IMG/VR virus record: IMGVR_UViG_3300025411_000009
Strand: one strand, 5' to 3'
DNA length: 64,000 nucleotides
Source of the DNA: an uncultured virus (IMG/VR IMGVR_UViG_3300025411_000009)
Lineage: Duplodnaviria > Heunggongvirae > Uroviricota > Caudoviricetes
Of this stretch, positions 23,929 through 53,396 are shown in pieces (the stretch's first letter is position 1; each line of letters opens with the position of its first letter). The notes beneath the pieces were generated by a model. It saw only the letters and a program-made list of their open reading frames with translations, did no database searches and was not told where the DNA came from. The translations under genes and the position numbers were made by a program.

Positions 23929-24120
23929 TTTTTTGATTGTATAGTTTTTAAATATACTGATTAGAATTGATACTGCTAACCAATTTCGCCATGTATAATC
24001 AATATACAAGGCAGGAAAGATTGTATCCCATGCCCATATAACAACCAATGACCAACATAAGCATAATACTACTAATACTACTGCTGCTGTTATTGCCAAT
24101 GCCCATTCTATATCTTTCAT
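23926..24120 (-). CDS. Small membrane protein
   Basis: MKDIEWALAITAAVVLVVLCLCW...; two hydrophobic segments. Confidence 0.6.
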   Translation of the reverse strand: MKDIEWALAITAAVVLVVLCLCWSLVVIWAWDTIFPALYIDYTWRNWLAVSILISIFKNYTIKK

Positions 24121-24656
24121 TATTGATCCTCCGCCATCATTTCTTTCCAATCCTCAGCTATTTGTTCTAGATTGAAATCTTCAACCAGATGCTGAGGTAT
24201 ATTACTCAAGTCCTCATAATCAAGTTCATACGATGCGTCCTGACCGTCATAGTATTCACCGACAAATGACATACCTTCTTCAATGTATGTAGCAGAAACA
24301 TCCCAGCCATGTTCAAACATCCAATGATATAAGTTCGTTGGTGGTGCCCATGCCGTTTCACAACTAAAGGTTATGGTGTCACCTTCTCTACGCCAATTAT
24401 TAGCATCGGCATTCCATTTTGTTCCCCAATTACTGACTGACCAGCTATACCAATCAGGTGCACCATACTTCTCTTGCATCTCAGCGGCTAATGCCTCATT
24501 ACGGTTAGGTGATTCTACATCAACCAATTCTTGTGGGCATGGCATAAAGAAATCAAACCAATTCTTGCCTTCACCATTCTTTAGAAAAGTTTCTAACCTG
24601 TCCATCTTTTCAGGTGTTGCTGTAATGCTAACACTATTTGAGCACCAATTTGGCAT
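24120..24656 (-). CDS. YubB/DUF1281 ferredoxin-like domain protein
   Basis: MPNWCSN...DWYSWSVSNWGTKWNA...ETAWAPP. Confidence 0.75.
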   Translation of the reverse strand: MPNWCSNSVSITATPEKMDRLETFLKNGEGKNWFDFFMPCPQELVDVESPNRNEALAAEMQEKYGAPDWYSWSVSNWGTKWNADANNWRREGDTITFSCETAWAPPTNLYHWMFEHGWDVSATYIEEGMSFVGEYYDGQDASYELDYEDLSNIPQHLVEDFNLEQIAEDWKEMMAEDQ

Positions 24657-24657
24657 C

Positions 24658-25062
24658 TTAATTGCCCTCCACTAATTTATAAGGTTTCTTCCAATCGCCG
24701 ATATTCACATCAACATAATAGGCAGTATTAAAATAATCTATTTGAGCATTACTTTCATCATACCAATCAGCTGACTTCATCGCTTTGAATACGGTCTCTA
24801 AAAATTCTTTCGCCTTGCCAGAAAAGTGCTGATGATACCAATAAGGGTTCACATCAACATAACCAGCATCCAAATGAAAGCGATAATCGTTGCCTGTATT
24901 TGCTTTAATGTTAGATAGAAAGTCAATCGAGCCTTCTTTAATTGATAGTTTAATCGTGCTATGGTTTCTAACCGATAATGAACCTTTGATGCCATACTTC
25001 TTGAGTATAGGTTTCAAGTTCTCTGCAATTACTTTCTTTTTAGATTGATTCATGTAAGCCAT
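24658..25062 (-). CDS. Conserved phage early hypothetical protein
   Basis: MAYMNQ...KKYGIKGSLSVRNHSTI...DESNAQIDYFNTAYY. Confidence 0.7.
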   Translation of the reverse strand: MAYMNQSKKKVIAENLKPILKKYGIKGSLSVRNHSTIKLSIKEGSIDFLSNIKANTGNDYRFHLDAGYVDVNPYWYHQHFSGKAKEFLETVFKAMKSADWYDESNAQIDYFNTAYYVDVNIGDWKKPYKLVEGN

Positions 25063-25083
25063 TTTACTTCTCCCGTTTAGTTT

Positions 25084-25190
25084 ATTTTTAAAGCACACTC
25101 GGCATTAAGCCTTTGCTACCAAGAAATTGGATTGGAATGTGCTTTAAAAATGGCAGTTTCTTTAATGACTGAGCTGCCAAAAGTCTTAAC
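25084..25190 (-). ncRNA. Pseudoknot plus long stem with branched apex (possible RNase III site)
   Basis: GACT/AGTC interleaved with TGGCAG/CTGCCA; then ATTTTTAAAGCACATTC/GAGTGTGCTTTAAAAAT stem enclosing two hairpins. Confidence 0.55.
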
Positions 25191-25191
25191 A

Positions 25192-25566
25192 TTAAGCAGC
25201 GAGAGCTACTTTTTTGTCTTGTGCTACTGGTTTTACCTTAGCAGGTTCAGCAGCCTTTACCTCAACCTTAGCGGTTGTTGTAACCTTAGCTTTAACTTGC
25301 TTGTAACGACCGTTAGCATCAAAAGCATCTGGATTAACCAATTGATAACCAGTCACCTTACGACCATCTTTTACAACCTTAACAATGCCACCGTCACGGC
25401 GAATATTGTAAATATTGGTTGATAAGCGATATAACACCGCTTCTTGGTCTGTGCCTTTGAATACTGCTTTGATTTCGTCAGGCGATACTACTTTGCCAGA
25501 TAAAAGCACTTGCGTGATTTTCTCGTGGCGATTAGTTTTGCCTTTTCTGATTTTTAATGTTGCCAT
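25192..25566 (-). CDS. Basic, possibly winged-HTH protein
   Basis: Lys-rich; LYRLSTNIYNIRRDGGIV resembles a recognition helix and wing. Confidence 0.5.
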   Translation of the reverse strand: MATLKIRKGKTNRHEKITQVLLSGKVVSPDEIKAVFKGTDQEAVLYRLSTNIYNIRRDGGIVKVVKDGRKVTGYQLVNPDAFDANGRYKQVKAKVTTTAKVEVKAAEPAKVKPVAQDKKVALAA

Positions 25567-25661
25567 AATATAATACTCCTCAAAATTAATAATAAACTAC
25601 TCATACTACAATGTACCATTATACACTTTCCACTATAAAAGTCAAGCATTATTTTGGTACT

Positions 25662-27181
25662 TTACCTCATGTATACCGAAAATCTATCGGCAAACATTCT
25701 TACGCAATCTTGGTACCTTTGGTTAGGCGACCTTCGATCCAACGGGTTAGTTCTGCTACCTCTGAACCTCACCCGAATTTTTTTACCTTGAGATTTGAAA
25801 TAAGCCCTTACCTCATCCAATCGGCGTATTGGTATATTCTTATAACGGGCTTCTTCACCTTCTACTCTAAATGGTTTTAAGTTCATATTCACTCCTATGG
25901 TCTATAATAAGAATTAGTCCAATTGCCTTCGGGTTCTTCCTCGTAAGCAAGCGCCTGTATAATATCGTCAAGCACTTCCAACTTGTCCATTGGCATTCTA
26001 TCACCGTTTAAAAATATCTCACTTCTAACCAGTTCTAAAATAGTCTTTACCTCAACCTCGGTTAGTTCTATCTTACGAAGCGAACCGTCATCCAAGTTTC
26101 TGGTCTCACCAGTTCTAGTATTCAATGAAAACGCTACCATACTTACCTCCCTAATTTCAATACAACCATTATATCACATCCATACCAAAAGTCAAGCATT
26201 ATTTAGCCTATTCGGTATCGATCCATACTCTACCAAAAATCAATTCGCCACCGTTCTTTTTAATAACATAGAAGTCATTAGGAAAATCAATGATATTGCC
26301 TAAGTCCTCACGGATTTCGTCCTGATTGATATCCTCAACCTTGATACAACCGATTGAACCAGAATCCACAGCATATTCACGACCTTCTTGGTCATTGTAA
26401 ACACCATCACCATAAGCTGTACCAAAGATAGCAAACTTACGACCATCTTTTAATGAAAATACACCTTCGCCTGGGTCACCATTGGTTGGATCGAACATTA
26501 TATTACATGCTTCGTCCCATTCATTGTGCATAACATAGCATAGGTCTCCCACATAATACTTACCTGCCGGCATCTTATCAACTATCATAATCAAATAACC
26601 TTCCTATCTTATTAACGATATCCTCATTATAATAATCTGGATCAATGTTCCGTATAGCATAAAACATATACTCCAACTCATCATAATCCAATTGAACCGT
26701 TACCTCTGGTGCATCAGTAGATAACCTCTTTACCTCAAAAATAGTCTTACCAGTCATATTACTTTACCTCACTTATTATTAATGTTACCATTATATCATA
26801 TTTGGATAGAATGTCAAGCATTATTTGGATACTTTTACCTCATTAAAACCTGTATAGTACCTCAATAGTCTTACCTCAAGTACCTCAATGATACCTCACG
26901 GACTTAGCGAGGCGCCTGCGTGTAATACCTCGCCATGGCCTTCGCTGGCCAGTGCTCCTGTATTGGTGTTAGTTTCTCAGCACGATACCGAAAGTTCCAG
27001 AGGTATCCTGAGGAACTTCCGAGCACCTCTGATATTATTTTGTGATAGCCTTTACATATTCCTTGAAGCCTGCTACTGCTGACTTCTTATCACAAAAATA
27101 GAAGCGCATGGATACCAATTGATTATTAATGATATCGGACACCTCTATAACACCCGTATTTGGGTTCCGTGTTATAGTCAT
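25662..27181 (-). other. Early hypothetical ORFs 25662-25892, 25895-26140, 26208-26594, 26578-26757, 27035-27181
   Basis: Each cassette lies downstream of a promoter with an RBS; 26208-26594 has the YYVGDLCYV...GTAYGDG...VDSGSIG motif common in phages. Confidence 0.7.
26731..26898 (-). repeat. TGAGGTA direct-repeat cluster (7 copies)
   Basis: Plus-strand TACCTCA at 26731, 26765, 26836, 26858, 26872, 26881, 26892. Confidence 0.85.
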
Positions 27182-27364
27182 TCTTATCTCCTTATTATTA
27201 AACTGCTATTATACATGAAATGGCAAAAATGTCAAGCACTTTCGAGCGGACTATACTATAAGAATAGCACGCAACCTCTGCTCTCCTCTCCAACCGGTAA
27301 ATACCATTATACACGATCCAATAAAAAAGTCAAGCACTTTTTGGGGTGCCTGACTTCTATTTGA

Positions 27365-28081
27365 TTAAGCAGCTAGTGCGATTGGTATGGTTTTCTTGAC
27401 AAAACCACTGGTGTCCTTCTTAGCCTTGCCCTTCGCCTTGAGACCGGCAATAACACCCTTAGGATCAAGGAAGCGAAGGTCGGTGTCATCAGCATTAATC
27501 ACAGGGAGACCTAGGTACTGCTCTGGTAAGCCCTTATCAAATACTGCTGCTACATTATAACCTTGCTCGATAGCACGGTAAACATCGTGGTCGTTTCCGT
27601 CAGCAGCAGAAAAGGTTAGGTTATAATTGAATGGTACAGTGCGACCGACTATTTTGGTGTAATCATAGAATTGGACAGTAGGAAATGCTTCCATCATGTT
27701 GCGGTATTGTCCTACTCTGATTTTCTCCCATGCGATATCACTGGTGCCGTTTAAACGGAATACAGGGATTAATCCCTTCTTTTCAGCATATTTGATGGTG
27801 CTCTGTATTTCAAGTGCTAGCTCTTCCATGAATTGCTCACGAGCTTCAAAAAAGCGCTTGGTTTTACGGATACGGGCTTGCTGAATTACATTGGTATTTT
27901 CGCCCTTCTTGAATATACCACCACGGCCTGCTGTATTCAAGCAAGCAGCTTTACAGCCTGCGGTTGCCTTAGGACAGGTTTGGTGGCCTGATAAGTCAGC
28001 AGGTGCTAAATGGAGGATACTGGTTAGGTAGCCCTTCTTTTCGCCCTTCATGATTTTTGGATTGCCTCTAGTCAATAACAT
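27365..28081 (-). CDS. Gp88-family Cys-cluster (radical-SAM-like) protein
   Basis: TCPKATAGCKAACL, FRLNGTSD, QFYDYTK, YNLTFS, DDTDLRFLD. Confidence 0.75.
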   Translation of the reverse strand: MLLTRGNPKIMKGEKKGYLTSILHLAPADLSGHQTCPKATAGCKAACLNTAGRGGIFKKGENTNVIQQARIRKTKRFFEAREQFMEELALEIQSTIKYAEKKGLIPVFRLNGTSDIAWEKIRVGQYRNMMEAFPTVQFYDYTKIVGRTVPFNYNLTFSAADGNDHDVYRAIEQGYNVAAVFDKGLPEQYLGLPVINADDTDLRFLDPKGVIAGLKAKGKAKKDTSGFVKKTIPIALAA

Positions 28082-28305
28082 TTATATCTCCTTATTAATT
28101 CAAGTACCATTCTACACTAATTGGCAGGAAAGTCAAGCACTATTTTTGGTCATAAAACGGTCATATTGGAGCTAGCACGCAGGGGCGGTGTGGAACCATT
28201 ATATCATATCCAAGGGGAAAGTCAAGCACTATTTGGGGCTAAAAAATGCTTGACTTTTGGTAGGAATCATGTATAATGGTAACATAATGACAAAGGAGAT
28301 AAAAA

Positions 28306-30802
28306 ATGCAATTATACCACTTTCATGTATTGAATAACATCTATGATGTGGAGGCACCCGATGCTGGCTCAGCCATGCAATGGATGAACCGTCAGGTTAT
28401 GGATGCCTTAAACATGGGGCCATATGCTTGGATGGATATGCCTATGCTTGAAAATTCATACTATTGTAGCCCTGGCGATTATTTCAATTAATGCTTGACT
28501 TTTTTGCCAGTTCTGATATAATGGTAACATAATGAATAAGGAGAAAAATATGACGGTTTTAGGATTTTGTAAGGTTTTAGGTGAGGTTATCGAGGACAAT
28601 TATGCTGCCAAGTGGACTCATAATGTATTGAAGATTGATATCCAAGAAGGCAAGCGCTTTTATAAGCTTGTCCGCCATGACTATGATGTGGAGACAGGCC
28701 AATTGGTTAAGTTTTCAGGCTCTGTCCACTGCTTCGTGGAGAAGGCGACTGGCGATATCTATAAGGCAGCTAGCTTTAAAGCCCCTGCCAAGGGTGTCCG
28801 TTTCAATATCGTTAAGGATCTAGAATTATTGAAGGAAATCGCTGATTGGGCAGGTGGCTATCTATACCGCTAAAATAATGCTTGACTTTTGGTATGGATA
28901 TGTTAGGATGGCTACACTATGAATAATTTAATAACACTTTTAATAGGGCTCTGGATCGGACTAGTAATAATAACCATCGGGCTCTATATTTTGGAGAGAA
29001 AATAAAATGGCTAAGTTTACAGTAAGGCTACCAAAATTGGTAGAGTTTATCGAGACCGAGGTTCATACAATCGAGGCTGACTCTGCTGAAGAGGCAATGG
29101 AAATAGTAATGAATTCTAGTGGAGATCCAAATGTCCTCTATGAGGAAGACGGATGGGAAACTAGGGAAGTGTGGTATCATGATATGGAAGCAGAGGAGAT
29201 TAAAGCATGAGCAAATTATTAGCAGTTCTATTATTATCAGTCTCCATCGGGGCTCAGGCTCACGATGGGTTCAGAGGCGGATATGGCGGTGGGTACCATC
29301 ATGGCGGTGGTAACAATTGGATCGCTCCAGCTATTATAGGGGGCATCGTAGGATATGAGCTTAATCGCTCTTATGGATACAATGCTAATCCCTACGTTGG
29401 CCAGTTCGGTCGAGGTTGCCGCCCCATCTATCAGACCGTATGGGCTCCAAACGGATTCGGTGGAGTGGTTCCGTTTCAGCAGTATTTGGGCTGTAATTAA
29501 GCCCCCTATTATATCACATCTGGCAATAAAGTCAAGCCCCCTAGGCCCCCTAGATTTCGCTTGACTTTTTCATTGGTTTCTGTATAATGGACACCATTGG
29601 TAAGGCAGCAATTAATCTGGTCTTCTAATCCACCCCTGGTCGTCTTCCATAGGGGGCTAAAATTCTGCTTGACATTCCATCCATTTTCTGTATAATGGAA
29701 CATAATTGATAAGGAGATAAAAAAATGAGTATGTTAGTAATCGATACGCAAGACCAAGAAAATTATGCCGCCCACCAAGGTTTCACTGGTGACTACCGCT
29801 GGAAAATGAAGGGTGGTCAATCCTACAAAATCACTAACATTCCACAAGGCGTGGACCCAGCTGAGGTTGTGGAGATGGTTCGCTTGGACATCGAGGAGAA
29901 TAACAATTTCTTCCGCTCAGACATTATCGGATACTCCCTCCAAGCGGATGACTGGATGTCTCCATTTGAAAAGAGCCAGCTCGAATACGAAGGCGAGATC
30001 CGCTATGCCGAACCCACCATTGATTATCGAGATTATTTAGCAGAAATCGCTTAATAATGCTTGACTTTTGGCATGGATGTGTTATCCTAGCCATACAATT
30101 AAAAAGGAGAAAAATATGACTGAAAAAGAAAAATTAGATTGGGAATTACAAGCTTACGGATGCTCTAAAGCGTCCCTTATGAGAATGGTAAAAGAGCAAG
30201 CCTTCCCAGGCACAGAGCTCATGTTCGCAGCTGGTATCCTATCAGATGCACAGGAAATCATCAGCGCTGAATTCAACGAGGACGGCTGGGTATCTCCAGA
30301 CCAAGCGAATCAAGCTAGACAGTTCCTCAATCGTGCTAAATGCATCATGTTCAACTTGATGGAATCCAGAAAGGAGCCTGTATGAGAATCGAAAAGCTAT
30401 CTTCAGCAGGAGGCACTTCCCTCCAAGGCGAAGTCTATACGGACTATGATACACTGGTGGCAGCCTTCGGTGAACCATCCTACGGTCCAGATGAGGACCC
30501 ATCCGATAAGGTGACCTGTGAATGGGTGCTAGAAATCGATGGCACGGTGGTGACCATATACGACTGGAAGGAATACGGTGATACCCCTAGGCACTATTAT
30601 GACTGGCACATTGGCGGGTATGATAGAAGAGCAGTGGACAAGGTTGAATCAATAATTAGGGAGGTAGAAAATGCTTAAAGGACTATTAATTGGTATTGTA
30701 TTAGGATTGGTAATAAAATATGCTGTATCGGACTCTAGGTGGTTTCAGCATGATGAATTCGCTGAGTTCAAATCAACGAGCTCATTCGAGCAGTTCAAAT
30801 AG
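28306..30802 (+). other. Plus-strand early ORF island: 28306-28491, 28550-28873, 28919-29005, 29007-29210, 29207-29500, 29725-30054, 30116-30385, 30382-30678, 30671-30802
   Basis: AGGAG RBSs after promoters; GC-richer codons; includes a secreted Gly-rich protein and single-TM peptides. Confidence 0.75.
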
Positions 30803-30834
30803 TTTTATCGGCGTCTAGTCAGCGCCACTCTCCG

Positions 30835-30864
30835 GAGGTGTCCATTGGGGCACCTCTTTTTTTT
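30835..30864 (+). terminator. Rho-independent terminator closing the plus-strand early island
   Basis: GAGGTGTCC-ATTG-GGGCACCTC followed by 8 T. Confidence 0.85.
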
Positions 30865-30948
30865 GGAGGCGGCTTAAGAATCGCTATGTGTCCTATAAAA
30901 AAAAGCCATCCATGGTCGGACTCTGAATTCAGTAACTTTTTTTCTAGC

Positions 30949-31983
30949 CTATTTTTTTGTGGAATCGAAATTTTTTCCGGAGGGTTTTCGTGTTCCCTTA
31001 ATTTTTTCCTGGAGGTCTATAATCTCCAAGTCTTTATCGGCTAATTGAACCTTGAGCGTTTGAATCACTTCATTAGACATTATCAGTTTAGTTTCTAATT
31101 CATCTACAGACTTTACCACGGAGTCTATTCTAGTCACTTCATCAATATAATTATTATGATATTCTGAGCCATAGTACCAAATCATCGCTATTAATATAAC
31201 GATTAATCCCAATAATACGTCATCTTTACCTATTTTAATTTTGTCCATCTGTATCCTCTTTCAATCTCTTCTTTAGTCCAACCATCATATTTTATCAGAT
31301 TTCTCTTCCATCTCTTATAATCTGATAGTAAGTAAGCAAAAGTACCACCAGGAAACTTAGGAACTTCTTCTTTTATCATAGCATCTTTTTTATCGTGTTC
31401 AAGCCATAAAATATACACAACACATACAATAAAAAAGGCGGATATCAGAGGCCAAGGTAGATTATAATTGAATATATTAAAATTATCCATTTTTATCCTC
31501 TAGAAATTTAAGTCGCTTTCTTAAAAAACTCACATCTTCTTGTAGAGATACCACTTGATTTGTCTTGATATACAGTTCATGACGGACTTCATCATCTATT
31601 TTTTCAAATAATTTCTGCCTATCTTTACTTTTCCAATCATGGGTTACATTAATACCTATCAGGATACCCATGATAAAGAAAACTATGCACATAACAATCA
31701 TATATTCTTCTCCAAATTATCACAAGCCAATCACAAATCTTGATGAATCATACTTATGAATATGCTTACAGTCTAATTTTTTGATATATTTCTTGTAAGC
31801 ATCTGGTTCCATGTAAAATTGTAAGACATCTTTTAAGGACATAGCGAGTTTTATCTCTTCCTTGTCTTCTTTATACTTGAGAGCGACTTCGAGTTGTCTT
31901 TGGAGTTCTCCCACGATGATGCATTCCATCTGGATATCTGTAAGTTGTATAGAAAATGTGTTAGAAATGTGTTTGGAAGTCAT
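30949..31983 (-). other. Small membrane-anchored and hypothetical ORFs 30949-31248, 31230-31490, 31483-31701, 31720-31983
   Basis: N-terminal hydrophobic helices plus coiled coils. Confidence 0.6.
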
Positions 31984-36599: not shown

Positions 36600-37277
36600 C
36601 TATTGGTATACCTCAAGCTCATATGATTGCTCACGGTATTGTTTGAATGTCTTTTGGTATCTTTTAATAAGTGGTGATAATTCTTCATAATTGATACCAA
36701 ATTCTTCAATTAAAAATTTCTTTGGTTCGGTAGATAGGTATGCTTGAATTTCATCCATAATAACTTTGGTATTATAACCAAGTTTTATTAAATGCTTACG
36801 AATGATTTGGTATTGTTTCTTATGCTTACTCAATAGCCTATGTGTTAAAATGTCCATATCAACCTTATATAAGGTTTCAGTATAATAATGAGCATGCGCC
36901 ATTTCATGCCTATATGCAGTCTTATCCGTCTTTAATGAACCAATGACATAAAACTTTTCATTCCAATTGACCTTCTCTTTGATTTTATCAATTAGTTCTT
37001 TTTCTTTAGGTGTCCATTCTTTTTGTGGATTTAATTTAATCCATTCTTTAAGAATATAATCCGGAAAGTTAAAGCCTGTCCAAAAATTGAAGTAATTTAA
37101 ATTACCCATGTTATCCATAGATTCAATTAAGAAATCATATACCGAAAACTTTTTGCCTACTAGGCCTTCTAATGGTGATTCATAATATTCTTGAATACGG
37201 AAAAAGGTTGTAGTAATCTCTTTGCGAGTATCAAATTCAAAATGAATAATATTACTACTTGGTTTATAGGCTATCAT
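36600..37277 (-). CDS. HExxH zincin-like protein
   Basis: RHEMAHAHYY...DEIQAY. Confidence 0.55.
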   Translation of the reverse strand: MIAYKPSSNIIHFEFDTRKEITTTFFRIQEYYESPLEGLVGKKFSVYDFLIESMDNMGNLNYFNFWTGFNFPDYILKEWIKLNPQKEWTPKEKELIDKIKEKVNWNEKFYVIGSLKTDKTAYRHEMAHAHYYTETLYKVDMDILTHRLLSKHKKQYQIIRKHLIKLGYNTKVIMDEIQAYLSTEPKKFLIEEFGINYEELSPLIKRYQKTFKQYREQSYELEVYQ

Positions 37278-50665: not shown

Positions 50666-52687
50666 TTAGTTAGAAATTTTACCCATCATTGTTTCTTGTT
50701 TTACTTTTTTTAGTGCTTGTTTAGCAATATCTTTAACTCTAGACATTGGTGTATGTTTAGCACCAGACTTATCTGTTACAGTACCAGGTGATTTTTTCCA
50801 TGGTGATTCTTTTTGCCATGAACCTTCTGCTTCTTCTTTAGCAACTTGTGATGCTGTTTTATGACCAGCAATAACTGCTAAATCTTTACCTGAAATGCCA
50901 TGTTCTTTGCCTACTGCATTGTAGTCTGCTGAAGTAAATTCTTTATGACTTTTGTATCCTTTTTTATCAGCATGGTTCATCATTGAAGTGTAGATATCTT
51001 TCATTTTGCCTTCATTGATTTCAACTTCAGTTTCTTCTTTAGCAACTTGTGATGCTGTTTTATGACCAGCAATTACTGCTAAATCTTTACCTGAAATACC
51101 ATGTTCTTTACCTACAGCAGTATAATCAGCTGGTGTAAATTCTTTATGGCTCTTATAACCTTTTTTATCAGCATGCATCATCATTGAAGTGTAGATATCT
51201 TTCATCTTGCCTTCATCAATATATTCTACATCTTCTTTAGCTAACTTATCAATAGCTAAATCATGGCCTTTTTCTCTTTTCCATGCACCACTTTGGTACT
51301 TTTTAGAAAGACTAGACCATGTTTCTTTTTTTCTTGGACTTCTAGCTGTATTAGATTTAGCAAGAAAATCTCTAGCTACTGTTTGTTTAATACGAGCATC
51401 ATGAGAGGCTTTCTTAGCATATGATGCTAAAGTTTTTGGATCCAACTCATCAAGTTGTTCTACTTCTTCTTGCATTCTACCGTCATGAACTTTCATTACT
51501 CGTTCAATCTTACGAACTCTTAAACCAGCAAATGGACCTTTACCCATAGCTTTGTTTGCTGTTTCAATAGCATGACCGTCATGTTCAGCATCGATTAATA
51601 ATTTAGCCATCCAGTTACCATCATTGTCTTCGTAGTGAGCAACATGAGTATAATCACCATCATCTTTACCTTCATCGATTAAATCAAATTCAATATCTTC
51701 TTGATAATGGTCACATCCATCATCTACTTGATGTTTGTCGTGATGTTTTTTAAAATCAGACACTCTCTTTTTATGCTCTCCTTTTTCTTTATGGCGTAAA
51801 TGTTTTAATTCACCCATAACTTCTTCTTGTGTTACTTGCTCTAATTCTTTAGATGTGAAATAAGCTTGTGGAGTAGGTTTACCTAATTTGTCATCTGTTT
51901 TGATATCTACAGGACCTGGATTAGTAGTAATCTTTTGTCTTTCTTTTGTTTCACCTTTATTTTCTGTATTAGGTTTAGTAATGTCTGCATCTTCTTTCAT
52001 CGCTTGCTTAGTAGCAGTAGCATACATTACATTTTTCCAATTTTTACCATACTTTGCTTTAAACTGAGCAGTTTTATCTTTCATGCTCATTACAATTTTT
52101 TCTCTTTTCTTCATTTGAGCATCAGACATTTCTTCTTCACCAAGATTGTTATCGGTGAATACGTCAGGAGCACCTGCTAAAGGACCTTTTGCTTCTAACA
52201 TTGATTTTAATTTCTTAGCAAAAGATAATTCTTCTTTATGCATTGATTTTTCATGACCCTTAACTTCTTTTCTAGCAATATCTTTAACTTTAGCATAGTC
52301 ACAATCAACTTTACCATCTTCTGTAACCTTAACTGGATATTTTTTGCCTTTGAATTCAAAATGTGATTGGCCTGCTTTGTGAGCAGCATGTGCAGCCATG
52401 CGTAAGCCAGATTCATCCATTTCAGCTTCATCTAATTTAACTTCTTCATCCATTTCATCATCTTTTTGTTTAGCACCACCGTAAGCATGACCAGCAACCT
52501 TACGGGTAGCAGATGGAGAATGTCCTTTTTCTGCCTTTTCAGCATCTTGTTTATCTCGTAATGCGTCTAGTTTCTTTTTACGAGCAATAGCCTCTGGATC
52601 AGGTTTAGCTGGTTCAACTTTAGCCTCTCCTAATACTTGGTTAACGGCATCAATCATTGATTGGGTTACTTTATCTTTTTGAAACAT
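50666..52687 (-). CDS. Modular internal head/prohead core-like protein
   Basis: Charged; many (L/I/V/M)-x-E sites; YGKNWKNVMYATATKQA motif; tandem duplication. Confidence 0.6.
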   Translation of the reverse strand: MFQKDKVTQSMIDAVNQVLGEAKVEPAKPDPEAIARKKKLDALRDKQDAEKAEKGHSPSATRKVAGHAYGGAKQKDDEMDEEVKLDEAEMDESGLRMAAHAAHKAGQSHFEFKGKKYPVKVTEDGKVDCDYAKVKDIARKEVKGHEKSMHKEELSFAKKLKSMLEAKGPLAGAPDVFTDNNLGEEEMSDAQMKKREKIVMSMKDKTAQFKAKYGKNWKNVMYATATKQAMKEDADITKPNTENKGETKERQKITTNPGPVDIKTDDKLGKPTPQAYFTSKELEQVTQEEVMGELKHLRHKEKGEHKKRVSDFKKHHDKHQVDDGCDHYQEDIEFDLIDEGKDDGDYTHVAHYEDNDGNWMAKLLIDAEHDGHAIETANKAMGKGPFAGLRVRKIERVMKVHDGRMQEEVEQLDELDPKTLASYAKKASHDARIKQTVARDFLAKSNTARSPRKKETWSSLSKKYQSGAWKREKGHDLAIDKLAKEDVEYIDEGKMKDIYTSMMMHADKKGYKSHKEFTPADYTAVGKEHGISGKDLAVIAGHKTASQVAKEETEVEINEGKMKDIYTSMMNHADKKGYKSHKEFTSADYNAVGKEHGISGKDLAVIAGHKTASQVAKEEAEGSWQKESPWKKSPGTVTDKSGAKHTPMSRVKDIAKQALKKVKQETMMGKISN
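50831..51216 (-). repeat. Tandem coding duplication with 201-nt period
   Basis: EGKMKDIYTSMM.HADKKGYKSHKEFT...HKTASQVAKEE at 51032-51216 and 50831-51015. Confidence 0.9.
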
Positions 52688-52700
52688 TTTTATTTCTCCT

Positions 52701-53396
52701 TTATCTGCATTTCCACTTGCGTAATGCGAGTGCTTTTCTTGTTGGTTTACCATCTGGTTTTTTCATTGGTCCAGGCATTCCACCCATTCTAGCACAGAAT
52801 GATTTTCTGCGTTTAGCGGCTTTACTTCCTGGTTTTACTTTGCCTGTAACGGCCTTTTTTAATTTAGATCCTGGATTCTCTCTACGATAAGAAGCAATTC
52901 CTTTTGCATTTAAACCACCTGTAGGACTTTTACCTTCTTTTCTGCGCCAAGCGGCAGTTTCGTATAGTTCTTCATCTGAAACATCTTCAAGATTTTCCCA
53001 AAGAATATCTGGATCAATATTACTTTCTTCTGCGATGCCATCAACTACTTCTTCTAAAATATCAAACAATTCTTCAAGTTCTTCTGTTGTAGGCTTAACT
53101 TGTAATCTCTTAAATGCGTTATCAACACCTTTTTGTCTTTTTGGTACTAATTTACCATACATATCAGGTTGATAGCCAGTCTTTTTTAATTGGTCTGTTG
53201 TAACTTTATCCAAATATCTCTTAACTGTTTCTTTGTCTATTTCATTTACTTGTTCTACTTCTTCAGGTACACAGTTTGGTACTGTTCTACCATTCTTTTG
53301 TTTAGTACCAATTGCTGTATAACCTTTCCAACAAGCCTTTTTTAAGGCACCTGTAGGTTTCTTAACTTCGTCAAGATATTGTTTAAATTTTAGCAT
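52701..53396 (-). CDS. Probable internal protein with DUF6321-like basic C-terminal domain
   Basis: MLKFKQYLDE leader; CWKGY...VPNCVPEE; AWRRKEGKSPTGGLN...SFCARM...LRKWKC. Confidence 0.65.
   Translation of the reverse strand: MLKFKQYLDEVKKPTGALKKACWKGYTAIGTKQKNGRTVPNCVPEEVEQVNEIDKETVKRYLDKVTTDQLKKTGYQPDMYGKLVPKRQKGVDNAFKRLQVKPTTEELEELFDILEEVVDGIAEESNIDPDILWENLEDVSDEELYETAAWRRKEGKSPTGGLNAKGIASYRRENPGSKLKKAVTGKVKPGSKAAKRRKSFCARMGGMPGPMKKPDGKPTRKALALRKWKCR

Follow-up and report, generated by a model that had tools for sequence, protein, structure and literature searches.

The hyperplastic regions of T4-type phages have been described as having an architecture of promoter-early stem-loop (PeSL) cassettes (PMC4122927, PMC2839356), in which, in the parts of the description drawn on here, a stem-loop lies just upstream of the promoter and a ribosome site and start codon lie at the 3′ end (PMC4122927). 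A different element, STAB-SD of Bacillus thuringiensis cry3A, is a sequence in untranslated mRNA that resembles a Shine-Dalgarno (SD) site, pairs with the 3′ end of 16S rRNA and, as described, starts no real protein; the proposal is that it retains a 30S subunit and protects the RNA, and it is a single site near the 5′ end that counters RNase J1, a 5′-3′ exonuclease of Gram-positive bacteria (PMC4113751). Here we analyse a 64,000-nt stretch of DNA (hereafter the window) from an uncultivated freshwater T4-type myophage (IMG/VR record IMGVR_UViG_3300025411_000009), in which the heptamer TGAGGTA recurs on the transcribed minus strand of an early region. We find that the copies form a real, lineage-specific array that varies in copy number and keeps an invariant core, that satellite copies lie in the adjacent genes, and that the whole sits in an early region of the PeSL type.

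An earlier note on this DNA, made from the letters alone, had listed 11 plus-strand copies of TACCTCA (TGAGGTA on the minus strand), and all 11 are present, at 25258, 25663, 25809, 26048, 26731, 26765, 26836, 26858, 26872, 26881 and 26892, as are the two near-matches that it gave (AGAGGTA at 26701 and CGAGGTA at 26926) and the grouping of five copies inside 63 nt (26836-26898). Counted on both strands, TGAGGTA/TACCTCA occurs 15 times in the window compared with 6.97 ± 2.38 times in shuffled sequences, none of 100 shuffles holding 15 or more; these and the other motif statistics cover the 64-kb window, which is one part of a genome of ~280 kb. The minus strand of the window carries 12 copies of TGAGGTA, 11 of which lie within 1.65 kb (25258-26898) and one at 36609, and the region 25258-26898 contains no copy of the opposite sense. 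The shorter word GAGGTA behaves similarly, with 15 of the 20 minus-sense copies falling in 25200-27050. When all 7-mers were scanned over the window, TGAGGTA emerged as the most clustered 7-mer of all (naive Poisson 6e-14), outranking the promoter word GCTTGAC. Five of the copies (25258, 25663, 26048, 26731 and 26765) have in common an exact 10-mer, TGAGGTAAAG, that is otherwise absent from the 64 kb. If the array is taken as one place and the six dispersed copies as six more, all seven independent places are in the sense of the early transcripts (two-sided binomial p ~0.016). The heptamer pattern is real and looks selected. The sole sense heptamer outside the cluster (36609-36615, minus strand) ends a 225-aa gene, in which it is read as Glu-Val, and lies 46 nt upstream of the -35 box of an early-type promoter, P36563.

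The array itself (26836-26898, minus strand) consists of five TGAGGTA cores with start-to-start spacings of 11, 9, 14 and 22 nt. It lies at the 3′ end of a tract free of open reading frames (ORFs) (26822-27034, minus strand), which has the properties originally described for it and is both the 3′ untranslated region of a 48-aa gene (27035-27181, minus strand) and the upstream region of an early promoter, P26817. The GC content of the tract reaches 59%, compared with 34% for the window, and the fold predicted for it (-66.7 kcal/mol, z = -2.69, equalled by 2 of 200 shuffles) includes all three of the hairpins that had been pointed out. Hairpin 1 (26984-27027, minus strand) has a loop, GAUACCUCU, that is the complement of the motif and resembles an anti-SD tail. 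The other two hairpins are GC-rich (26905-26951, minus strand), with stems GGCC/GGCC at 26936-26951 and GCGAGG/CCUCGC at 26905-26935; the second of these stems contains the near-match CGAGGTA, and no U-tract follows the pair. A partial inverted copy of the motif is found at 27000-27005. Parts of the array also resemble other places in the region: a 29-nt stretch is 72% identical to the start of a 59-aa gene (repeat D9), and the copies at 26836 and 25663 are homologous, belonging to one promoter-flank repeat (D14, D18) that places each of them 18 nt upstream of a -35 box (that of P26817 and that of P25645, respectively).

The array is surrounded by promoters. There are 18 near-consensus sigma-70 promoter matches in the window, and 11 of them, with shared flanks, are crowded into 25.6-29.7 kb; seven of these are on the minus strand and four on the plus strand, and they diverge at 28225/28250, which locates the strand switch that had been placed near the motif region. 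One or a few small genes follow each of the clustered promoters. P26817 (26790-26817, minus strand) matches the sigma-70 consensus at 12 of 12 positions, carries in addition a TG extension, and lies directly downstream of the array, while P27235 (27208-27235, minus strand) also matches at 12 of 12. Transcripts from P27235 and from promoters further upstream are predicted to contain, in order, the 48-aa gene, hairpin 1, a weak helix, the two GC hairpins and the five heptamers, after which come P26817 and the 59-aa gene; no minus-strand terminator-like site is predicted between P27235 and the array. Upstream of P27235, promoter P27333 precedes it by no more than ~100 nt with no gene between them, and the leader between the two (stretch 27245-27333, minus strand) is purine-rich and has several SD-like words; this stretch is replaced by 117-169 other letters in strains X12, X13, X15 and L158. 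The early block (24000-31000) has a GC content of 0.38-0.445 compared with 0.30-0.36 further away in the window.

In all these respects the setting looks like the PeSL cassette regions that have been described. Repeated near-consensus sigma-70 early promoters flank small variable genes, hairpins (26905-27027) lie upstream of P26817 with a ribosome site and ATG at 26757-26771, and the indels and gene replacements that separate close strains coincide with the cassettes, including a replacement at 27242-27343 and insertions at 25632-25646 and 26766. It differs in that the array is placed between the stem-loops and the promoter, and the PeSL description, in the parts drawn on here, mentions neither a heptamer array nor copies of a motif within genes (PMC4122927). 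A stretch identical to the window is present on a 280-kb metagenome contig (L156). The window as a whole encodes a gp32-like single-strand binding protein, a gp59-like helicase loader, a gp33-like late regulator and a primase, as well as ribonucleotide reductase, baseplate proteins and CobS/CobT-like proteins.

Comparison with close strains indicated that the array is variable in length and invariant in its cores. Two contigs, L157 and L158, are 92-94% identical to the window over the region and carry eight tandem heptamers rather than five, the extra copies being three 11-nt units inserted at the 5′ end of the array. A contig of sequencing run X15 is 33 nt longer at the array position, and contigs of two more runs (X12 and X13) have 47 and 36 gap letters there, as the long allele could give. 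In none of the five and eight units is there a single change in the 7-mer cores, whereas the spacers are 2, 4, 7 and 15 nt long and differ in sequence (TCAT, ACAT, CT and others). The dispersed copies covered by L157 and L158 are all kept, that at 26048 being retained in L157 within a patch of five nearby substitutions, except for the copy at 26765, which in both strains is split by a 14-nt self-complementary insertion that could form a small GC hairpin. This insertion (L157:300-345, L158:3790-3830; window 26757-26771) separates GAGG from the ATG of the 59-aa gene and shifts the SD core to ~22 nt from the ATG unless the hairpin folds. In the structured part of the tract the three strains differ by a single substitution, a C to U change in the anti-motif loop that keeps a G.U pair in RNA and would break the motif in DNA; because L157 is mostly identical to the window apart from a few divergent patches, this near-invariance is no evidence of constraint.

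Beyond these strains the array disappears. The 124-aa gene at the downstream end of the region has relatives at 29 IMG/VR loci, two of which are the same phage, and none of the 27 non-self loci has the array or the tract, or an oriented cluster of words comparable to it; the loci L159-L169 likewise contain no array. Likewise, in 14 relatives' loci with the 74-aa gene (77.7 kb) there is no sense heptamer and one antisense heptamer; these are 14 of 21 non-self loci, the others (L182, L183, L184, L188, L189, L192 and L194) having the same match statistics as those listed. IMG/VR searches with the 59-aa gene, with the 81-aa gene and with a tract-specific pattern returned only identical contigs. 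Since the word has been gained in this lineage, at places that the proteins tolerate and on one strand, its gain points to selection or directed copying and not to chance. A scan of IMG/VR for three close copies of TGAGGTA found at least 119 stretches, many of which, by an open-frame check, lie in coding repeats, and among those listed none shares a protein with this region; because no control word was included, the count is uninformative on enrichment.

The six dispersed copies, all on the minus strand, occupy several kinds of position. The 59-aa gene has one of them (26765-26771) as its ribosome-binding site, 8 nt before the ATG, and the 74-aa gene ends in another (25663-25669), which provides its final codons and stop (ATG AGG TAA) and lies 18 nt upstream of the P25645 -35 box. 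The remaining copies are within genes: in the 59-aa gene (26731-26737; Phe-Glu-Val-Lys, with the near-match AGAGGTA at 26701-26707), in the 81-aa gene (26048-26054; Val-Glu-Val-Lys), in the 74-aa gene (25809-25815; Asp-Glu-Val-Arg, the Glu varying among homologues) and in the variable Lys/Ala-rich tail of the 124-aa protein (25258-25264). The earlier note had drawn attention to the Glu-Val framing of such copies. Indeed, the copies in the flanking ORFs read GAG GTA, and the core genes favour GAA (88%) and GTT (46%), but the framing is largely forced by the word itself, because TGAGGTAA gives TGA in one frame and TAA in another and so leaves Glu-Val as the only reading within a gene. Part of the contrast with core genes is, moreover, regional, since the early genes as a group are rich in GAG (39%), GTA (42%) and AAG (56%), compared with 12% GAG and 23% AAG in core genes. 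Even so, there are four in-gene heptamers where we would expect ~0.5 (Poisson p ~0.002), an expectation that is our own estimate, obtained as 8 Glu-Val dipeptides x 0.39 x 0.42 x ~0.4 for the preceding T; five of the eight Glu-Val dipeptides of the early genes are spelt GAG GTA.

The small genes of 81, 59 and 74 aa are real, with seven and three database matches for the first two (in both cases including the window's own protein) and 18 for the third. In the 81-aa family Glu-Val-Lys is invariant in seven of seven members, and the protein may therefore explain the word there. The 74-aa gene (25662-25886, minus strand) encodes an arginine-rich product with a family of at least 18 members, and both of its copies fall at residues that vary among 15 homologues. 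Some members of this family are encoded on contigs of 264 and 342 kb, and it has no Pfam or PHROG match. Paralogy among the small genes, as a source of the shared word, was not supported, since none of them aligned with another at E ≤ 100.

One account of these observations is that the array is a fast-evolving tandem repeat, produced by slippage or by recombination between promoter cassettes, that has no function of its own, and that the dispersed copies come from cassette flanks, codon usage, protein constraint, chance or short gene conversion. The difference of five copies and eight between close strains and the 33 extra nucleotides of X15 are what such a repeat would be expected to give, and indels at repeated promoters make a mosaic of the region, as has been described for promoter-early stem-loop regions (PMC4122927). 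The resemblance of the 29-nt array stretch to the start of the 59-aa gene, the origin of copies 26836 and 25663 in one promoter-flank repeat, the preference of early genes for GAG, GTA and AAG, the conservation of Glu-Val-Lys at the protein level in the 81-aa family and the absence of the array from relatives beyond ~92% identity all fit as well. A neutral repeat accounts less readily for cores that are perfect in all five and eight units next to spacers that have diverged both in length and in sequence, so that changes are not even over the unit, or for the excess of in-gene copies, the occurrence of the five exact 10-mers in three different coding roles, the lack of detectable paralogy among the small genes and the placing of the motif at variable residues of the 74-aa gene. 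The comparison with variable-number short tandem repeats of prokaryotes is similarly divided: those too are head-to-tail units, here of 7-11 nt, with a strain-variable number, whereas here the core is invariant, the spacers are divergent and the same word occurs in one orientation in adjacent genes. We regard a functionless repeat as possible, if on balance rather unlikely.

The reading that we tentatively prefer is that the heptamer is a word of the ribosome-binding-site type, in which the SD core GAGGU is overlapped by a UGA stop, and that it acts in early RNA and not in DNA. Of the proposals made in the earlier note, tandem SD mimics on an early RNA fit the anatomy best, given the transcribed strand, the 16S pairing, the use of TGAGGTAAA and the absence of a predicted terminator; the part of that proposal that fared less well is display of the motif, the copies being no more unpaired than the rest of the predicted RNA. 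The dispersed form of the word is predicted to pair with the 16S tail at -7.0 kcal/mol and the tandem unit at -9.4 kcal/mol, compared with -9.3 kcal/mol for the usual AAGGAG site, values obtained with an assumed 16S 3′ tail and not with that of the host. Real use as a ribosome site is suggested by the copy at 26765, before the ATG of the 59-aa gene, by GGGAGGTAAGT, before the 81-aa gene, and by five relatives' loci (L159, L160, L161, L166 and L167), in which TGAGGTAAA stands at a stop-start junction as a real ribosome site. Within the array, which is closed in all three sense frames, a UUG lies 4 nt downstream of each unit and opens an ORF of 2-5 codons, and there is one further ORF of 14 codons with a spacing of 7 nt.

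If the heptamer does act in RNA as a ribosome-site word, transcripts from the strong upstream early promoters would cross the 48-aa gene and enter an untranslated structured tract whose 3′ end presents five to eight SD-like units, each with a UUG 4 nt on and a stop soon after. These units might attract 30S subunits or ribosomes into abortive start-stop mini-ORFs of 2-14 codons, and an otherwise naked stretch of early mRNA would thus be kept occupied, with the expected effects that nucleases or Rho would be kept off and that the next gene would be supplied with ribosomes. The hairpin at the 5′ end, with its anti-SD-like complement, could pair with the units instead and so serve as a possible on/off switch, and the same partner would have additional sites in the isolated copies of the downstream genes. 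In keeping with such pairing, the region of hairpin 1 (42 nt, inverted repeat I17) is complementary to the start of the array, and the predicted duplex between the two has an energy of -36.4 kcal/mol compared with -20.7 ± 3.8 kcal/mol for shuffles that preserved base composition only, none of 500 being as good.

The nearest described mechanism is that of STAB-SD, and a stabilising role for the array may be proposed by likeness to it: the array is complementary to the 3′ end of 16S rRNA, and only ORFs of 2-14 codons follow it, with no real protein. The two differ in that here there are five to eight tandem units as well as dispersed copies, that the phage promoters look proteobacterial, and that the array is not near a predicted 5′ end, lying at least ~300 nt downstream of the predicted P27235 start and upstream of the P26817 start, as against the single site near the 5′ end in the STAB-SD account (PMC4113751); a 5′ end made by processing is, however, conceivable here.

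Several observations weigh against the assignment of the heptamer to ribosome-site words acting in RNA. The peptides of the mini-ORFs differ between alleles, the usual ribosome site of the phage is AAGGAG and not the TGAGGTA word, the conserved flanking U and A are unexplained by pairing with the 16S tail, and a spacing of 4 nt to the UUG is short. The 11-nt period fits the DNA helix equally well. Because the next gene is separated from the array by P26817, many of its transcripts would not contain the array. The predicted unpairedness of the motif copies (0.26-0.44, compared with 0.41 for the rest of the RNA) is not above average, and the hairpin-array duplex was compared with a control of base composition alone. 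Finally, the array is confined to strains at least 92% identical and the tract is not conserved beyond them, and the three alleles are nearly identical, too few for covariation.

More specific forms of an RNA function fare less well. The sponge action suggested in the earlier note, whether for ribosomes or for a protein, is not supported by our computations. Sponge RNAs of the CsrB/RsmZ type display GGA in hairpin loops. The array resembles them in presenting many copies of a short purine-rich word in non-coding RNA, and differs from them in that its units lack GGA and are not predicted to lie in loops, four GGA being found only in the 5′ structured part. Other candidates were set aside: CsrA sites (the units lack GGA), RegB-type nuclease sites (the core differs), a Rho loading site (the array is G-rich and C-poor), a type III antitoxin mimic (the unit is too short), and RfaH-type pause sites, BREX-type sites and frameshift signals. 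A broader proposal is that the locus is a self-contained SD/anti-SD RNA module, in which the hairpin mimics the anti-SD tail, an expandable run of SD mimics follows, and the word has been written into adjacent early genes at variable positions, so that the RNA or its partner would control ribosome access to, or decay of, one gene block, with the copy number of five or eight as a tuning knob; we consider this speculative and decidedly unlikely in its full form.

The same geometry can be read in terms of DNA. The heptamers could be operators at which a phage or host protein, for example the neighbouring winged-helix protein, binds phased repeats upstream of P26817 and single sites near other early promoters, and so tunes or shuts off early transcription. 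The extra units of the long allele have an 11-bp period, about one helical turn; the array centres lie at approximately -56 to -112 from the predicted P26817 start; the homologous copy 25663 is equally 18 nt upstream of the P25645 -35 box; the one other sense copy, at 36609, is also near a promoter (P36563, 46 nt); and there is the partial inverted copy at 27000-27005. The 124-aa protein (25192-25566, minus strand) is a conserved early protein with a predicted winged-helix fold. A structural model of it has a predicted local distance difference test (pLDDT) score of 74, with a core above 85, and a search of one fold library with this model returned no match at E ≤ 0.001; the best of the weak matches (E 0.09-0.3) are all DNA-binding winged-helix regulators. 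By its modelled topology the protein is thus a candidate nucleic-acid binder, without a link to the motif. Its Lys/Ala-rich tail is found in this phage alone, the tails of relatives being acidic and Thr/Val-rich.

Arrays with a layout of the DNA type do exist elsewhere, in that unrelated viral contigs carry TTGAGGTA arrays as inverted pairs flanking AT-rich spacers, but these contigs share no protein with this region and, because they were retrieved by searching for the same word, they are not independent support. The contigs in question are of low GC content (L009:2990-3200; L086:200-470; L018; L047), and their arrays, on both strands and with a 9-11-nt period, face the AT-rich spacer in an origin- or operator-like manner. 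Other features of the locus are at odds with an operator: 27 non-self loci retain the winged-helix protein but have no array, all copies have one orientation and five of them are deep in genes, far from promoters, the spacings of 9 and 14 nt break the helical phase, and in the strains with eight copies the inverted DNA copy is abolished by the loop substitution. We consider an operator role unlikely, less so than the full two-part RNA module.

The earlier note had also raised a DNA loading site near the strand switch, serving either replication, as an origin with iterons like those of T4 oriE, or DNA packaging or entry, and for this we found nothing positive. T4 oriE contains 12-nt repeats at even intervals, requires an early promoter and is near a strand switch, and repeats of this type are found in the syntenic regions of close T4 relatives (PMC3016281). 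According to the same review, however, a connection of these repeats with origin activity is not established (PMC3016281). In the T4 record, moreover, the repeats near the annotated oriE point (79426-79557; L171:7427-7558) coincide with a 24-nt (48-nt) coding repeat in gene 5, and the model case is therefore itself weak. Like oriE, the array has short direct repeats at even intervals, close to an early promoter and to a point of transcription divergence in a T4-type genome; the T4 units are, however, 12 nt long and lie within gene 5, whereas the core of the array measures 7 nt, is non-coding and is missing from relatives. What can be said for an origin is that at least three direct repeats (five or eight cores) are present, that they are evenly spaced, and that they adjoin early promoters 1.3 kb from the transcription divergence. 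On the other side, the Pfam and PHROGs searches identified no initiator-like, primase or terminase family among the neighbours searched, the one candidate binder nearby being the winged-helix protein, which relatives without repeats also have. The upstream flank is 59% GC and no AT-rich block separate from P26817 was evident; the downstream flank of the array is AT-rich but is that promoter. The GC skew, inspected as a sign of an origin, merely follows the direction of transcription; relatives have no oriented array at the syntenic place, an absence that the earlier note had listed among the grounds for refuting its proposal; and the array is ~22 kb from the end of the 280-kb contig by coordinate arithmetic. 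The origin reading is without positive support, and an origin, packaging or entry function appears improbable.

Least probable of all, and in our view hardly to be expected, is that the tract is a decayed or unrecognised small protein gene, either a sense 40-aa ORF with a GTG start (26904-27026) or an antisense 64-aa ORF (26888-27082). In the window neither frame is interrupted, and the antisense one is uninterrupted in L157 and L158 too, but in an AT-rich genome a stretch with 59% GC can be expected to hold open frames. Neither ORF belongs to a Pfam or PHROG family at E ≤ 1, bar one chance-level match (E = 0.11). The sense ORF lacks a ribosome site at a suitable distance, and L158 has ACG in place of its GTG start; the antisense ORF has neither promoter nor ribosome site, and its C-terminus is frameshifted in L158. 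The array is, moreover, closed in every sense frame. A decayed ORF, which the earlier note had named among the findings that would undo its proposal, is unlikely.

Searches for known elements returned little. There were no Rfam matches over the window at gathering scores and none over 26700-27300 at E ≤ 10, a tRNA scan of the window found no genes, and DNA searches of phage records, near and distant, gave no match to the region or the tract and only two unrelated matches of 60-85 nt. Elsewhere in the window, a 201-nt unit is repeated twice with 90% identity (50824-51216) inside a 695-aa gene (50666-52753) that has no PHROG match.

The early regions of T4-type phages are full of uncharacterised small genes, and little is known about their post-transcriptional control. 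If the heptamer acts in RNA as a ribosome-site word, the locus would be a compact cis-acting element made of ribosome-site mimics and their own complement and tuned by repeat expansion in close strains, and it would offer a testable case of how a phage handles untranslated stretches of early mRNA. A DNA operator and a functionless repeat are serious rivals to this reading. Should either of them be correct instead, the locus would still illustrate cleanly the spread of a lineage-specific word into coding sequence, at positions that the proteins tolerate.

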